DNA of 52,609 bases, the filler included, from Squatina squatina (taxonomy: Eukaryota), in the NCBI GenBank assembly GCA_031763465.1. It is 3 parts of 3 records of this genome, joined end to end, with 100 filler letters (N's around TTAATTAATTAA, not from the genome) between each part and the next. Parts side by side here need not be neighbours in the genome. Positions count along the whole stretch, not along the records: positions 1 to 16,538 come from JARFOE010000016.1; 2 more parts are not named here. The stretch is one strand, 5' to 3'. Both the position numbers and the translations under genes were made by a program. Under the pieces are notes generated by a model. That model was not told the origin of the DNA. It did no database searches and saw nothing but the letters and a program-made list of their open reading frames with translations. Below are positions 2,869 to 48,883 of the stretch, in pieces (the stretch's first letter is position 1; each line of letters opens with the position of its first letter).

Positions 2869-3499
2869 CTGTTTGGAGGAAAATGATCATAAAAATGTAA
2901 NNNNNNNNNNNNNNNNNNNNNNNNNNNNNNNNNNNNNNNNNNNNNNNNNNNNNNNNNNNNNNNNNNNNNNNNNNNNNNNNNNNNNNNNNNNNNNNNNNNN
3001 CCAATATTGTACTGCATGCTAATTAATTGTAAAACTGTATAATTCAGGTGATTTGTACCAATAAAATAGACTGAAGAGATTTTTAATTAAACCTTTAGTG
3101 TGACTGGCTCAGTTTGTCCAAAAAATCTAGAAACCTGTTCCCAGGACTAAAAAGAGGAAAGTCCTACAGGGGAAAGAACATCAAAGCTGAGCTTATTAGC
3201 ATTTTAACTCTCTTTCATCTCAGTGACTTTTTAAAAAAAAATGTGAATACTCTTTGCTTTGAAAGCAAGCTTAATTATTTCTTCTAAAACTGTTCTGTGG
3301 AGAAAATAGCCAAAAAGTCCTGAGGTATGACAATAATGCTAATTACTTCTGACAGGAATTGCTTCCCAACTTGTTGGGGGCAAAAACCCTTCTGATCTTC
3401 TGCCTCATTTGGGCACCGTGCCCATAATGTGAGCACCGAGCATTGCTGGAACACCTTTCAACTATCCTATCATCCGACCAGTGCCCCGCTGATCCTTAC

Positions 3500-3657
3500 T
3501 TGATGGAGAACTGCAGCTTCTCCGTGATCCCAAGCAGGCAGGTCCCGATAGCCAGAATAAAGATTCCAAGTCCGAAGTACTCATGTAGCGGTCGGTAGCA
3601 GGCTCGGAGGGAGTAGGCCGCGCCAGGAAACAGAAAGAACATCAGTCCCATAGCCCA
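3500..3657 (-). pseudogene. Isolated cytochrome b561 (CYB561-like) exon encoding about two TM helices, nested in a WNK2 intron
   Basis: ctctctttttacag|TGG...; WAMGLMFFLFPGAAYSLRACYRPLHEYFGLGIFILAIGTCLLGITEKLQFSI AA|gtaagg. FFLFPGA, YRPxH (heme-ligand His) and LLGITEKL motifs match the CYB561 family; no other b561 exon seen in the window. Confidence 0.8.
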
Positions 3658-4213
3658 CTGTAAAAAGAGAGCCAGCAAAAGTCACTTTAACCTTTAATCC
3701 AATACTAACACAGCATAACAAGCATGGTCCAAATAACACCTCAAACATGTTTCAGTGTCAAAGTGGGAGCAAACCTGGTTTCAATCAAATCTTCAGGTAT
3801 TTAAGGGTACATGAGGTATCTTGGTCTCCTTGTACCTCAGTCCCATCATCTCATCCTCCCAATCCCTTCAGTCTTCCCTCCCTCCCATTGGATGTCAACT
3901 TGAAGTACCCCAACAGATTCTGTATTCCTCCACCTATTGTCCCTCATTAAGTGCATGTATTATATTTTTGTGAATATTCAGAATACCTGGCCTTATGTAT
4001 ATACCTCCACTTTCAGAAACTCCCTCCCTAAATTACCCTCTTTCTCTTAAAAAGCCTCTGAAAACATGTCTCTTAAACCCAGACATTGGTCCCCTCTCCT
4101 GGCCCTCCTTCAATGAGACCTGTGTGTTTCTCTCTTCTCCACTATATAAATTCAAGTTAGTTTTTCCTTTTCTAACAAAGCTTTACCATGCATTAATTGT
4201 ACATGAATCTTAC

Positions 4214-4433
4214 CATTTCTTGTGCAACATCGTCAGGATTTTCTTTATTCAAGTCAAAACTGAACTCAATAGCCCCATTGTCTTTGGGCTTGCCCTTCAG
4301 CTTCTTAGGATCTTCAACCCAGAGTCTCATTGCTATCGAATTTTTTTTCCCATCATCTTCTTCAGCAAGTTCAACCCTTACCCCAGTGTCCTCCGCAAAG
4401 AATGCATGATTTAATAGAACCTTTATAGCATAT
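4214..4433 (-). CDS. WNK2: WNK2 exon: end of kinase domain and autoinhibitory/CCT-like domain
   Basis: tttgcag|A TAT GCT...; [73 protein letters not shown]|gtaaga. [13 protein letters not shown] is WNK2-type as recalled; 220 bp, ends in phase 0. Confidence 0.93.
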
Positions 4434-5055
4434 CTGCAAAACAATTCAACACTCAATTATTCAGCTTGGGGTAGAGTTTCTGCTTTGAATGCAATTGGCG
4501 ATCCTGTGCAAATTGCACCAGTCTTCAGAAGTGTTTCTCCCCACCACCCCCCACCCCCCACCCCCCAGCCCCCGCACGCCGAGTTTCTGATCAAATTCAT
4601 TTTCATAGTGCCAAATGCAAAATCTGCCATGAACCAGCGCAGTCAGGCAGCANNNNNNNNNNNNNNNNNNNNNNNNNNNNNNNNNNNNNNNNNNNNNNNN
4701 NNNNNNNNNNNNNNNNNNNNNNNNNNNNNNNNNNNNNNNNNNNNNNNNNNNNCTGTTAACCTATTTGGTGCTCAGTCAATATGCAATCTGAATTACTCAT
4801 ACTGAAATTGTATATATGAAGGCAGCACACAAAGCATGAGAATTTGAGGAAAAAAGCTTACACACGAATTTCTGGAATTATTCTATTCCCTTTTGGTATA
4901 AATGAAGTAGATTTTGAAAGTAATTGTGTTGTGCATAAAATTTCAGTGCACAAAACAAAAAGCTCACCACATGATTACGGCAAGTTTGTTTATATTTATA
5001 AGCCAGCTTGTAAACTAGCCATAAATCAGTTTGCCACATGAAAAAGCATTGATTA

Positions 5056-15116: not shown

Positions 15117-15775
15117 CTGTGGAAGAATTTAACGCAGTTACTATTTAGCTTCACTTTTCTGCACTGTGTAAATACACACAATCAGAACAGGTTAACAGGT
15201 CATGCACTTCAAAAGATTACTTATATTGATCTTTGGAGCAATCACACATGCAAGACTTTAAAGGAGCATGGTCATCACAATAACATTATTTGGCAAACTT
15301 GTTTTTTGTTCTGGAGAGGGAAGTAACCAGATGTGCATCACTTTCGCCATGACAAAGACACACACAAATGAAATACATTCTCTTCATCACTTGGCCCAGT
15401 AGATCATGTACTCCTTTTATGGAGCCCACCCATTTTCATTCCATTGAAATCAGCCAAACCCAATAATGTGCCCAACCAATGTTCATACATCCTCACTAAA
15501 TAGTGATTAAAACTAAATGCAGACTTCCAACTGTATTCAGGATGAGATTATTTACTGTAGCGCAACAGCTTTAAGTCACCAGATAATGACTGTGGTTAGC
15601 ACATTCTTGTTTACATCAAATTTAATTCTGATGTGGTCCATGGTGTTTCTGTGTTATACAGATAATATTACCTTGTACAATTAACTTGTATTAACTGTTA
15701 GAGCTTGCATAAAATCCAGTATTACAAGTGAAATGAGCCACTTTACCTAATATTATCATATAGTCGAAAACTTAC

Positions 15776-15929
15776 TGGCCAGATATTTGCTTGGCAGGTT
15801 TCTGTATATCTGTACATCATTTATCTCCAAAGCATTGTAAAATTCCTTACAGGCTCTGTTGTTCTTGTTCTGCAGATGAAGGAGGAGCTCAGATATTCTA
15901 GCGCACACTGGAGTGTTTACATTCCTGAA
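15776..15929 (-). CDS. CARD19: CARD19 (BinCARD) exon, C-terminal half of CARD; not in ORF track
   Basis: ccaacag|FRNVNTPVCARISELLLHLQNKNNRACKEFYNALEINDVQIYRNLPSKYLA A|gtaagt; aligns by eye to human FRNPKASLRVRLCDLLSHLQRSGERDCQEFYRALYIHAQPLHSRLPSR. CARD19 neighbours WNK2 in human. Confidence 0.85.
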
Positions 15930-16042
15930 CTGTTGGACCAGAATTCAAGGTTCAGTATGATTATCACCAGACGGACAACACAGCAGGACAAATCTTAATT
16001 TATCTTCATCTGGTAACTGGACCACTTATCTTAACAATATCA

Positions 16043-16582: not shown

Positions 16583-16594
16583 TTAATTAATTAA
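16583..16594. other. Artificial six-frame-stop linker in assembly gap
   Basis: N44-TTAATTAATTAA-N44 (16539-16638, total 100). Confidence 0.95.
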
Positions 16595-18480: not shown

Positions 18481-18618
<138 letters not shown>

Positions 18619-18892: not shown

Positions 18893-20828
18893 CTTGATTT
18901 AAATGTGCCTGTAGGCATTGAAATCAACAACTGCATGATTGGCACTCAAGCGCTGATTAGACTCGAGTTTCCTGGAGCTGCATACATAGCCTGCACTCAC
19001 CCACTTCCATTTCCACTGAAGGTGTGGAGTGCACAGGCTGGGCGAGAAGCCAACGTGGAAGGGTTTCTCAAGGAGCTCAAGATAGGGTGCCCAGGTTCTC
19101 CAATGCGGCACTGTATGTCCTGGTGGAGGAGGTAGAGAGGAGGAGGAGGAGGGATGTCCAATACCCAGAGGGGGGAAAGAGACCACAGAGGCAGCTAATG
19201 TGGCGGATATGGGAGAAGATCGCTCGGGAGGTGACAGCAGGAGCCCTGGCCCCAGGACATGGCTTCAGTGTCACAAGAAATTTAATGGCGACACGAGTGG
19301 TGTCACAAACACACTTCTCAATAACTGCACCACCACCACCAGCATCGCTACCTCAACATACTTCATCCACCATCTAACTATATACTGATATTCACACACC
19401 CTTCACATGCACTACTCACACCTCAGAAACATTGCCCAGCTCTTCAGCCATGTGAGGCAGCACACACACACACACACACACCTGTCAATACTCTCATTCA
19501 CAATCACCACTCTTTCTCTTCCAGGACAAGATAACAGGCAGCAGCAGCACCTGACCGGGAGAGGCCAACCACATCTGCATGCGATCACTCACCTTGAGGA
19601 GGCAGTGCTGGNNNNNNNNNNNNNNNNNNNNNNNNNNNNNNNNNNNNNNNNNNNNNNNNNNNNNNNNNNNNNNNNNNNNNNNNNNNNNNNNNNNNNNNNN
19701 NNNNNNNNNNNNNNNNNNNNNNNNNNNNNNNNNNNNNNNNNNNNNNNNNNNNNNNNNNNNNNNNNNNNNNNNNNNNNNNNNNNNNNNNNNNNNNNNNNNN
19801 NNNNNNNNNNNNNNNNNNNNNNNNNNNNNNNNNNNNNNNNNNNNNNNNNNNNNNNNNNNNNNNNNNNNNNNNNNNNNNNNNNNNNNNNNNNNNNNNNNNN
19901 NNNNNNNNNNNNNNNNNNNNNNNNNNNNNNNNNNNNNNNNNNNNNNNNNNNNNNNNNCCAGCAATTGCTGCTCGCCCCCACCCCCGTCGCTCAAATATTG
20001 TCCTTGCCATTGCCTGTTAGCCAGGCAGCCCAGACTGTTGAAGCCCATGCTGAGATGGTGCAGTCTGAGGCGAGGCCATCATGGCTACAGCCTCTCGAGG
20101 GCGTCTCAGGAGGGCATCTGAACTGCCCTCTTCAGATTCTCAGCAGCCATCCACATCGGCTGCTGCTGGCGCTGGGGTTGCACTTCATAGAAGCACTATT
20201 TTACGCAAGAGAACTTATAGATGGCCACTAAGGGTAAGCAGCAGGGTGAAGAGTTTAATGTTTTTAACTGATGTTGGTTCTGTCATATTTTGTTTCTGAT
20301 GTATATACACAGTGATAATGGTAACTGGGTAATGGTGCAATCAGTGGTCTTTTTTATTGTGATCTTCATGGGGAAGGGGTTGAAAGGATTGACTGCCTGA
20401 TGGATCCTAAGTCATGGAAGGTACATCATGTGGCCACANNNNNNNNNNACGTCTCTCAAAATTACTGTTCAATTAGATGGCGGTGAGTGCCCCACTCAGG
20501 TGTGGCCCATTTACCTGGAAGCCTCTGGTGCTCTCCCTGGTTCGCCTCCTCCTTCCGCTCCTGTTGTCGCTCCTGAACTTGATCCTCTGGCACAATTGCT
20601 GGTGGTAATGGCTGATCTCTCATAATTGCCAGAATGTGGAGCATGCAGCAAATCACCACAAGTGTGGACACCTTCTCAGACAAGTACTGCATGGCACCTC
20701 CTGACTGGTCAAGGCATCTAAACCTCTGCTTGAGGAGCCCAATGGTCTGCTCAATGATATTCTTGGGGGCAGAGTGGCACTCATTGTATGAGTGCTCAAT
20801 GGTTGTTTGGGGCTTTCTCAGGGGACTC
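18893..20828. mobile_element. PIF/Harbinger transposon remnant: Myb/SANT-like gene (+) and DDE transposase (-), convergent
   Basis: +19024 RVPRFSNAALYVLVEEVERRR...WEKIAREV; -20462..20828 PLRKPQT..E.SYNECH...IIEQTIGLLKQRFRCLDQSGG..QY..EKV...VVICCMLH (HARBI1-like C-terminus). Spans two gaps. Confidence 0.8.
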
Positions 20829-23851: not shown

Positions 23852-25026
23852 CTGAAACATTCAAAACAGGACTGAACAGGAAAACTGCAGAGTATTTCTT
23901 ACAGACAGCAGATCGAATACAATGAATTGTCAATGTATTTTACACTAACAGTGGCAGTACTGATATATTAATAAGGTAATGCTGTTGTCTCCAAAGGTGT
24001 TGAAAATCAAAGTCAGTTTACCTTTACACCTATGTAGATTTTGGTGAGTTGGCAACAAATACAGGTGCTGCCTCCGCTGACACCAGTTCATAACCTAGCC
24101 TAACACCAGATCTGAAAACTATTGGCTACAAGCTGGCAATTCTGCATTGCTAACCAACAGTTTCTCAGGGTTAAATAGTTCCCGATCAAGTTTATGCCAT
24201 ACCAAAGTTATAGACTTAATTGTTTCTGATAGAGTCAGTTTGAGGTACACAGGGATACACACAGCAACGCAACAGGGAAGGACACTTAACTCGAGTCTCC
24301 ATGCAGCTTAGAAAATTGACCATCTTTTCCAAAGCATCAATATTTTCATTGGTNNNNNNNNNNNNNNNNNNNNNNNNNNNNNNNNNNNNNNNNNNNNNNN
24401 NNNNNNNNNNNNNNNNNNNNNNNNNNNNNNNNNNNNNNNNNNNNNNNNNNNNNTTCTCTATAAACAGGAAAATACTTAGGACAAAAAGTACTCCTTTTAG
24501 ACTCGAGTTGTCCTCTTGGGTCAAACTATTTACCTTTTTTTCTGTTGCCAGATTTATAACAAGTTATGTTATGCAGTTGTACATTGAAATGCACAATCTG
24601 TTCACTTTCCCTATTTTTCTAATTTACTGTCAGCCTCCCCCAAAGTTTCTTCAGGCCAAGAGGCATCCCCAACCCCAGGGACAGGCAGAAACCTTGCTCC
24701 CAGGCGCCTGAAAATGCTGTTGGCAGGCTGGCCAAAAAGAACATTTTCGAGAGTGGCTTCAGCTGATCGGCCCTCCAATTTCTTCCCTTTCCTATCTAAA
24801 AAGACAGAAACCTCTTTTCTGACAGCACTGACAAGATGGACAACATGCACCCTGTCCAACTGTGGGCAAGAATGCATATTCTACCACTCCTCGACATAGC
24901 ACACAAATTCCCAATCTGACAGGACCTCCATTCTGCCATATGTACAAAAACAAAATCTGTTAACCACACATGATTTTTGTACTTTAGAACAAATTATCAA
25001 ACACACAAACAAACAAACAAACTTAC

Positions 25027-25202
25027 AGCATTGAAGTTTGCAAAATTTGTGTTGTCTCCAACACTTTTATTTGGAGAAGTAGGAGCAAATGGATCAAGCT
25101 GATTTTCTTTATGGAATGAATCCCCTGAATTAAACGGATGGAAAGGATCATTCAATTTGAAAGAGTCAGAAGATTCTGACTTTATAAGGGAAGGTCTTTT
25201 AC
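25027..25202 (-). CDS. EPS15: EPS15 penultimate exon (DPF motifs)
   Basis: aatgtag|GT KRPSLIKSESSDSFKLNDPFHPFNSGDSFHKENQLDPFAPTSPNKSVGDNTNFANFNA|gtaagt. Confidence 0.9.
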
Positions 25203-29194: not shown

Positions 29195-29267
29195 CTGGAC
29201 CTCACTCGTTCGCTGCTTGATGGCCTCCTCTTTTTCTTTAATTTCCACTTCCACACTGCTTTTCTCC
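29195..29267 (-). CDS. EPS15: EPS15 coiled-coil exon
   Basis: ttccag|G EKSSVEVEIKEKEEAIKQRTSEVQ|gtaagt; 73 bp. Confidence 0.9.
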
Positions 29268-31951
29268 CTGGAAGACCAGCAGACAAGGCAGGTATATTTA
29301 AGGACATCAGCGACAACAGGAACAGCCAACCAGCTCCCAAACCCTGACTCGCTCTTCAAATGCATCTTCAGGCAGTGATCTAGTGCTTGAGATGGGGCCT
29401 GGGTTGGATCTCTGTATACCTTGTACGGATAGGTTTTTAAACTATGGATGAAAAGACCAATTTCACCGAGGAATGAAAATGTCTGATCTCAGAAGTGGGT
29501 TTTGTGAAAGAGAGGCGCGAAAATCAATGAGACGTTTTCTCACCACAAATGTCACTGTTGCTATGGAGCTGTCAGCTAATCGAAACTAGAGTTTAGAGGA
29601 AGAGGAGGAGCTAAAAAGATCATCCCACCATTAAACAATATTATTCAGTGTTAAAACACTAAATTTTAAACTACCATTACACACACTCTTTTGCTGATGC
29701 CAATAAACTGGTAAGTTTTACAATAACTTTGTTTTTACAATAAACCTATGTTTTAAAAAACACAATGTCCATCAGAATTTGACAATATGAATAATGCCTG
29801 TATTTTTTCTTTTTAATAATGGATTTTGACTGCACAAAATCAGCACTTTAATGTTGGAATACTATTAAACTATACAACATACATGAATTATGGGCACTGT
29901 GGCTTTCTTACACTATATTCATTCCTCCATCTATGTGCATGATGTGAGAATTTCACAATATCACATCAATAGCAAACAGGAATATGCTTGCATGATTTCA
30001 TCTAGAAATAAGTCCTCATTAAAACGCATCTGGCAGTGCACAGACATTGCTGAAGAATTATTTTTTGACCTGTCAGTTATCTTTTCTACCCTGCAACACA
30101 TTTTCCCTCTCTTTCTCAACCCCCGCCTCCCTCCTGGATAATTTTCAGACTCACCGTTCATTAGGTGGAGAGCGGTGCCGTGGAGATTTTAAACAATCTC
30201 TTACCACTCGCATCATCTTTGCAGCACATTCTGCTTCATTCTAACTTGGTACTGAGCTTAGCATTACAAGTGTGAGGTTCAAAATCAAATGCAGATCAAC
30301 TGAATGTCAAGAGTGAATCCTACGACTGCAGACCTGCATGATATAATCAGCAAAGACTGACGTTCNNNNNNNNNNTGCAAGCCTGCCCTCTCTCACCGTA
30401 TACGCAGACAAGGGCTTCAGATTCTACAGAATCATTTCAGATACCAGGAAATAGCAGTCACGTGGAAAATACCCCAGCCCGAGAGACTCTCCACAGTAGA
30501 TTTAATCTTTCGTTTCATTTACTATTGATGGGGTGGGGTGGAAAGCAGGAGGAGATGTTGGGGGATGGTTCCCTTGATCTTCCCACGAAATGCCTGATTG
30601 GGCTTTTAAATTGAAAACGACAATTCTCTGGTGTGAATCCCTGTTTAATTACACTACAACTGCTGCTTGCCGTGAAAACTGAACATATAAATAGCATGAG
30701 GCTACACTGTGTGACTGTGTATGAGGGTGACTTGCACTGGCCAAGGCAGCAGCAGCAGAAGAGTGATGAAACAAACAGGTCAACTGAAGGAGGCTATGGG
30801 TCAATAAGAATAAATTAAAGGCTGTTTATTAAGAACAGGAAGTGAAATCTAAGTACAGGTAGGTAACGTAAGGTCTCAGGCTCATTTTTAGGCACAATTA
30901 AATCAATGCATCAGCATTCACTAACAACCTTGTAGGGTAAGAAAGACATGCAAATTATAGCTATGACTATCTTAAAGCCTCTGGTTTACAGGCTTCAGAC
31001 AGCCACTGATCTTTAGTTTCGAGCCTCTGATGCGCACTCGATAAAGCCCTTTGGAATTTCTCCAAGTTGTAAACATGATCTGATGGGTTAAGCTTCAACT
31101 GATGTTCTAAGCATTATTGATTATTGTAATCGAAGCTTTTAATGGGCAATTCACCCATCAGTTGTCAAGTCAAAATGATGAAGATATTTATTACATAGGT
31201 GCCTCACAATTTAAATGCAATTTATTAGTGATTCAATAAAACAACCAGGACCTATAGAGTTGACTTTAGATGAACCTTCGGACGTATGTTAAGAACAGTA
31301 CATTTTAATTTATTTTTTTTAAATGCAATAAAAGAATATCACCAACTTAAGTACTTTAGGTAGACCATAAGTCACAATATGCAACAGGAACTTTTTACTT
31401 GAATTTGCAGGAATCAATTCAGCAAAACAGATAAATACTGCTAAGACTACGTGTCAGATAGGTTCCTATCATACTCTTGCTTCANNNNNNNNNNNNNNNN
31501 NNNNNNNNNNNNNNNNNNNNNNNNNNNNNNNNNNNNNNNNNNNNNNNNNNNNNNNNNNNNNNNNNNNNNNNNNNNNNNNNNNNNCTCAATATGTCCTTTT
31601 TTTTTTCCGTAAAGAGTGGGACAAGGAAGAAAGCAGTGAATGTGGTGTTTTGTAGGCCTACAAAGATATCCTGCACTGATCCAGTCACCTCTTCACGACA
31701 TTCTGCTTCAGTCACACAATTAGAAGGTGAATATTTCTAAAAACACAATAATGTGCACATGCATGTAATTACCGATAATTGTAATATCAAGCCTAAGCTA
31801 TTCAGTACAATAATTGCCATCTCTTTTAGAGTTATTTTATGGTACAGCAAACAAGTACAAATGTTAAAGTATCAGATGGTTTGACATAACTTTGCCCAGT
31901 TGGAGGTATTTTTGCACAGAGCAGAGCAGTATACAGTGACAAACATTTTAC

Positions 31952-32596: not shown

Positions 32597-32608
32597 TTAA
32601 TTAATTAA
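32597..32608. other. Artificial six-frame-stop linker in assembly gap
   Basis: N44-TTAATTAATTAA-N44 (32553-32652, total 100). Confidence 0.95.
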
Positions 32609-48753: not shown

Positions 48754-48883
48754 CTTTCGAGGGGGTCTTGATGTTGCACATGGCCAAACAGGGACAGAGT
48801 CTATTTATTACAACTTCAGAGGCAAGGAGATAATGTTCCATGTTTCCACCAAACTCCCGTACACAGAAGGGGACGCACAGCAA
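48754..48883 (+). CDS. RAP1GAP: RAP1GAP catalytic-domain exon
   Basis: gtcccgtag|[44 protein letters not shown]|gtaagt; 130 bp. Confidence 0.95.

Follow-up and report, generated by a model that had tools for sequence, protein, structure and literature searches.

In the sections of PMC10691727 that deal with its architecture, cytochrome b561 is described as a protein of six helices with four heme histidines. The junctions of natural insertions appear, in the sections of PMC5120786 devoted to them, as blunt, as carrying small or templated insertions, or as showing 1 to 6 bp of microhomology, and the sole 18-bp junction in that set is an Alu-Alu join. On the technical side, the pertinent sections of PMC3861042 describe how the clipping of dead ends at low coverage removes true k-mers. 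The locus presented here lies in a window of 52,609 nucleotides from Squatina squatina (the whole stretch analyzed, filler included) and places 763 bp of CYB561 sequence (3397-4159) beside an exon of WNK2 on contig 3001-4652. This piece is a single exon flanked by intron sequence, 502 bp on the upstream side and 103 bp on the downstream side. As judged from the assembled sequence rather than from the source reads, the contig is probably a library or assembly chimera.

The window consists of 40 N-free pieces with a median length of 1,020 bp and an N50 of 1,384 bp, and it contains 32 gaps of exactly 100 N. The WNK2 exons follow each other in order, yet from one side of the 100-N gap at 2901-3000 to the other about 215 residues are skipped (approximately 403 to 617 in the epaulette-shark protein), which indicates that the gaps are placeholders. 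Twelve-base linkers at 16583-16594 and 32597-32608, each between two 44-N runs, reveal that the window is made of three separate records, and gene order across the records is therefore meaningless. The second record carries a TTC39-family exon (18481-18618, minus strand) and an EPS15 exon (25027-25200, minus strand; 93% to Pristiophorus), and a stretch at about 29230-29300 on the same strand is presumably a second EPS15 exon. The third record carries a single Rap-GAP exon (48756-48883, plus strand) with a PF02145 match and normal splice sites. The TTC39, EPS15, and Rap-GAP exons were considered as further chimeras and rejected, as they sit on other joined records; a second chimeric contig was not demonstrated elsewhere in the window. 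An 89-codon open reading frame behind the EPS15 exon (24614-24880, minus strand), considered as an alien exon, had no match in Pfam, among solved structures, or in the atlas and is probably due to chance. A fragment of a DDE_Tnp_4 (Harbinger-type) transposase was also observed at 20465-20827 on the minus strand.

The CYB561 exon, read from 3657 to 3500, is open, starts in phase 0, and ends in phase 2. Its splice signals are a polypyrimidine tract, an AG at 3659-3658, and a GTAAGG donor from 3499, so that the open 158-bp exon described in the earlier note is present with the acceptor and donor reported there. The translated exon matches PF03188 with an E value of 2e-13 (51.2 bits against a Pfam cut-off of 23), and the six matches that passed among 17 candidates are all shark CYB561 or cytochrome b561 proteins, with 81 to 87% identity, which bears out the cytochrome b561 identity proposed earlier. 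Structures of Dcytb and of plant b561 are matched as well, and the histidine of the exon aligns to His159 of 5zle. The exon shares E163 with Heptranchias and Pristiophorus, a residue absent in 11 other shark orthologues, and this points to a squalomorph source. Under human numbering we take it to be exon 5. The RNA-like run X15, from a relative, splices at the boundaries of this exon (record 3501-3661) and, by manual reading of its loose ends, joins it to CYB561 sequence on both sides. The splice sites are simply the native sites of CYB561, and the exon capture that had been argued from their retention is unsupported.

The exon covers only profile positions 86 to 136 of the 137 in PF03188 and contains a single histidine, and a tblastn search of the window with five orthologues as queries retrieved no further CYB561 exon; the stretch is therefore a fragment and not a gene, falling short of the six helices and four heme histidines of the family. 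When metagenomes were scanned for the CYB561 locus of a shark, nine loci with 40 to 64% identity turned up, none of them shark-like, and a self-BLAST of contig 3001-4652 against the window gave nothing above matches of 14 to 17 bp. The GC content of the exon (54%) exceeds that of most of the contig, as had been noticed, but not that of the adjoining CYB561 intron at 3414-3499, which is equally rich (54%), and the supposed excess over the flanks is not confirmed.

The best match of the exon read from 4433 to 4214 is a whale-shark WNK2-like protein (97%), and X15 leaves the window at 4214 straight into the next WNK2 exon. The CYB561 exon sits 556 bp behind this exon, on the same strand and within the N-free contig 3001-4652, exactly as first reported. 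Linkage was compared by the lengths of chromosome-scale records in the two shark species in which both genes lie on such records. In Rhincodon (whale shark), WNK2 is on a record of 62.4 Mb and CYB561 on one of 38.3 Mb, and in Hemiscyllium (epaulette shark), the corresponding records measure 90.0 and 52.2 Mb. WNK2 and CYB561 are on different chromosomes in both sharks, in agreement with the earlier statement that CYB561 is no neighbor of WNK2. The upstream WNK2 intron contains the end of a very high-copy repeat at 4466-4504 (summed depth of 581 to 2,588 in three DNA-type runs); this repeat is an old resident of the intron, since the WNK2 contigs of relatives extend to 4486-4488, inside the repeat. 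Upstream of WNK2 and on the same strand, a CARD-domain exon was observed at 15759-15944 (minus strand; PF00619, E value of 9e-5, just below the cut-off). This exon probably belongs to CARD19, a neighbor of WNK2 in human.

The make-up of contig 3001-4652 was examined by comparison, at 80% likeness, with the DNA-type runs X1, X6, and X12 (three organisms) and with X15. The relatives are about 10 to 12% diverged, and what is said of the four runs refers to their listed alignments, differences, and loose ends; they are four of 21 listed sequencing runs, in which the best share of the sequence words of the stretch was 0.10. No RNA run containing the stretch was among those listed, which says nothing about expression. 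The features recognized are collected in Table 1. The WNK2 piece aligns over 4140-4488 in X1 and X12 and over 4145-4486 in X6, and the contigs of the relatives then continue into 282 to 297 bp that do not resemble the window. The CYB561 piece is spanned from 3397 to 4159 by a single contig in X1 and in X12 and is covered by four short records in X6; the X1 and X12 contigs continue, again unlike the window, for 309 and 301 bp at one end and for 259 and 249 bp at the other. The extent of 3350 to 3700 given in the earlier note is therefore too short for the foreign piece. For the left flank (up to 3413 from 3169, 3234, or 3310), all three DNA-type runs have separate contigs, which continue for 302 to 325 bp beyond 3413. 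No joint between 3413 and 4140, as an empty site would present, was found among those listed in any of the four runs. The segments of the contig thus match separate loci in the relatives, as in a chimera.

Table 1. Features of contig 3001-4652 and its WNK2 and CYB561 segments (positions in the window)
Feature	Position	Strand	Remarks
Left-flank piece	3169..3413		Own contigs in relatives; begins in high-copy repeat 3169-3260
Left junction, 17-bp word common to CYB561 and left-flank loci	3397..3413		Identical edges in all three DNA-type runs
CYB561 downstream intron, first 103 bp with GTAAGG donor	3397..3499	-	X1, X12, and X6 records
CYB561 exon, 158 bp	3500..3657	-	Residues 138-190, including heme ligand His162
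CYB561 upstream intron, last 502 bp with acceptor	3658..4159	-	X1 and X12, one contig with the exon, colinear with indels
Right junction, 20-bp word common to WNK2 and CYB561 loci	4140..4159		16 bp in X6
Genuine WNK2 intron behind WNK2 exon, 74 bp in all	4140..4213	-	X1, X12, and X6 contigs
WNK2 exon, 220 bp	4214..4433	-	End of kinase domain and first 40 of 63 PF12202 positions; donor phase 0

The summed depth at 3169-3224 reaches 133 to 549 in the three DNA-type runs. The X1 contig of the left flank stops aligning at 3169, in this high-copy repeat, and continues for about 299 bp unlike the window; a third junction at 3169 is possible. Positions 3001-3168 are without cover in all four runs, which proves nothing by itself. 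The contig depths in X1 and X12 (11 to 14 for CYB561, about 6 for WNK2) were given no meaning in terms of copy number.

The junction overlaps of 17 and 20 bp are read from the edges of alignments to relatives that are 10 to 12% diverged. Simulated blunt joins reach an overlap of at least 17 bp in 0.009 to 1.2% of cases, depending on the scoring scheme, and the rarity of such overlaps indicates that the shared words are real. In an assumed genome of 4.5 Gb, the number of exact partners expected by chance per kilobase is about 1,560 for words of 17 bp, 30 for 20 bp, 8 for 21 bp, and 1e-6 for 33 bp, whereas the probability that two given 1-kb loci have a word in common is 3e-4 for 17 bp and 7e-6 for 20 bp. 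The contrast between many partners genome wide and few between given loci points to a genome-wide word match, and the observed overlaps are about as long as the words that occur by chance genome wide, as in a chimera. Because two such long overlaps call for two independent genome-wide matches, the left flank at 3169-3413 is likely a third locus, with the WNK2 intron as the alternative. Extra repeat-like cover was found in the bin 4121-4176, which holds the right junction, and is lacking at the left junction, where the depth in X1 is 12 versus 11.4 for the CYB561 contig. Microhomology is present at both junctions and is longer than at all of those given in the junction sections of PMC5120786 except the one Alu-Alu case.

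Both hairpins reported earlier (3365-3378 and 3410-3424) exist, as does the 10-bp inverted repeat, and the earlier note had already allowed that they may be due to chance. Four hairpins were counted against 1.4 expected (P = 0.07, 300 shuffles), which is borderline, and two perfect 10-bp inverted repeats against 1.4 expected (P = 0.44, 300 shuffles). The reported inverted repeat lies away from the junctions, with one arm within native CYB561 intron, and is a chance occurrence. The second hairpin overlaps the end of the left junction and suits a polymerase switch in the cell or in the library equally.

Between the exon and X15 there are 17 differences, apportioned as 9.5 synonymous over 42 sites and 7.5 nonsynonymous over 114 sites. 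The resulting dN/dS of about 0.26 (Fisher P of 0.003 to 0.018) shows purifying selection on the exon, as measured against a relative, although a very young real copy would look alike. There are no stop codons or frameshifts in the exon, and its two private residues (A139 and Q186) compare with 0 to 5 in 13 orthologues; the decay proposed in the earlier note is therefore unsupported. Of the polar residues that had been taken as hints of decay, those in HEYFG are native, as Heptranchias has HEYFG, Pristiophorus has HEYLG, and the codon is without a listed difference in all four runs. In KLQF, the polar Q186 is the one odd residue; it is private and stands where all 13 orthologues have L, I, or F, yet the private count remains within the range of the orthologues. 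A species change, an error at low coverage, or early decay may account for Q186. At the site of A139, all 13 orthologues have V. The unequal numbers of exon differences from X15 (3 of 173 for WNK2, 17 of 161 for CYB561) were considered as a sign of decay and set aside, as squalomorph CYB561 orthologues differ from each other at 7 to 8 of 53 residues. Relative to X1, divergence is about 12% in the introns of the CYB561 piece and 10 to 11% in the left flank; these similar values argue against both an old paralogue and foreign DNA as the source of the piece.

The three-piece make-up, the 17- and 20-bp overlaps, the unlinked genes, the purifying selection, and the fragmentary assembly together favor a chimera. 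The 763-bp piece would then likely be the native CYB561 exon of the animal, misplaced together with its flanking introns, with the 20-bp shared word joining it to the WNK2 intron and the 17-bp word joining its other end to another locus. Along an assembly route, true continuations would have been missing or clipped at low coverage, and an assembler working with short words would have taken a chance partner; along a library route, single strands would have misannealed. The sequencing or library route and the assembly route are indistinguishable here. In either case, WNK2 and CYB561 would be ordinary separate genes, and the join would have no effect in the animal. Several points speak against a chimera: with relatives that are 10 to 12% diverged, a recent insertion confined to this lineage would give the same picture and would still show purifying selection, early decay of a real copy could account for Q186 and A139, the left junction is overlapped by a hairpin, and an overlap of 17 bp is below what a 21-mer assembler needs, unless mismatches at the edges in the relatives trimmed it.

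A real and recent germline insertion by template switching (MMBIR/FoSTeS or class 2 templated), in which the 763 bp of CYB561 were copied into the WNK2 intron, probably along with part of a third locus, is unlikely, though it deserves more weight than any other rival. Microhomology at both ends and patches from several loci are typical of such events in the relevant sections of PMC5120786 and PMC5110952, the two private substitutions fall at conserved sites, hairpins surround the left junction, and absence in the relatives fits a young event. Against these stand the overlaps, whose 17 and 20 bp are more than natural junctions without a repeat pair usually show in the cases that PMC5120786 sets out, and the left junction, which has no extra repeat cover. 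The probability that two given loci match at both ends is about 3e-4 times 7e-6, an empty site is missing among the joints listed in 4 of 4 runs, and the count of private residues lies inside the range of the orthologues. The claim of an exon capture is accordingly left with its descriptive part: the CYB561 exon is real, comes from a gene unlinked to WNK2, and is accompanied by parts of its introns, whereas biological capture is unsupported, the overlaps of 17 to 20 bp fitting a chimeric contig, which the earlier note named as its own refuting case, better. The capture reading is weak, and the join is probably not a genomic feature.

Far less probable is capture by a mobile element, whether a Helitron, a Pack-type DNA transposon, or LINE retroposition of unspliced RNA (class 1 templated). 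The introns kept on both sides and the high-copy repeats at 3169-3260 and 4466-4504 would suit it, but the latter repeat is the old resident described above, and the 10-bp inverted repeat is a chance one. No A-run that would represent a poly(A) was present in the contexts examined at either junction, no direct repeat flanks the junctions among 15 families of at least 10 nt, no terminal repeats mark them, and Helitron ends were not seen by eye; the only tandem repeat in the contig is a C-rich run at 4539-4577. The junction with 20 bp of homology is, moreover, not a blunt target. The earlier conclusion that the exon is not a processed pseudogene is upheld by the native intron sequence kept beside it, 502 bp on one side and 103 bp on the other. 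Least probable of all, and scarcely credible, is that a functional CYB561 is nested in or adjacent to WNK2 or that the piece is contamination from a foreign species. The exon does look functional and other exons could hide in gaps, but the two exons are separated by no more than 74 bp of WNK2 intron and 502 bp of CYB561 intron, an upstream CYB561 exon is lacking, and the genes are unlinked in two sharks; contamination is countered by the divergence of the piece from the relatives, which is about that of the left flank. A chimeric contig thus remains the preferred explanation.

If the insertion were real, the WNK2 donor and the CYB561 acceptor, both of phase 0, would permit the in-frame addition of 52 codons behind the initial part of PF12202, the autoinhibitory region. 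With its 158 bp, the exon would shift the frame of the next WNK2 exon, and reading through its donor would stop at once, so that it would be a poison exon if used; an inert insertion would be more probable. That a young template switch created a poison exon through which nonsense-mediated decay tunes WNK2, or gave rise to a truncated, membrane-tethered kinase, is very improbable. Such a truncated form would be a WNK2 kinase lacking most of its regulatory tail and held at membranes by cytochrome b561 helices, and a real insertion would amount to recent exon shuffling, a rare event, into the gene of a kinase within a genome that evolves slowly. A WNK2-CYB561 fusion is not indicated in the titles and abstract openings of seven papers found to name both genes, and the literature search returned no relevant report of gene-fragment capture by Helitrons in sharks. 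If the contig is a chimera, freedom from gaps does not by itself establish contiguity in this fragmentary shark assembly, and orphan exons with intact splice sites need to be checked for end overlaps of 15 to 21 bp before capture is called.

In comparison with known systems, the exon resembles shark CYB561, such as XP_067825217.1 of Heptranchias perlo, in its 81 to 87% identity, in keeping His162 and E163, and in splice positions that match the transcript of a relative, whereas it differs in being a single exon with one of four heme histidines, in the private A139 and Q186, and in its place beside the unlinked WNK2. With processed pseudogenes and class 1 LINE-mediated insertions, it has in common a coding fragment at a new site, but not the loss of introns, a poly(A), or a target-site duplication (none among repeats of at least 10 nt). 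The FoSTeS/MMBIR events and class 2 insertions in the relevant sections of PMC5120786 and PMC5110952 offer a patch from another chromosome, microhomology at the junctions, and possibly several donors; unlike the FoSTeS/MMBIR cases outlined in PMC5120786, the junctions here share 17 and 20 bp instead of mostly 0 to 6 bp, and a return to the recipient locus is not seen. Chimeric reads induced by microhomology, as presented in the corresponding part of PMC8674242, likewise join distant regions through short homology, with the difference that those come from formalin-fixed human samples and the present join was observed in a contig. As in the chimeric contigs from short reads treated in the corresponding sections of PMC3861042, different genomic regions are joined in one contig.
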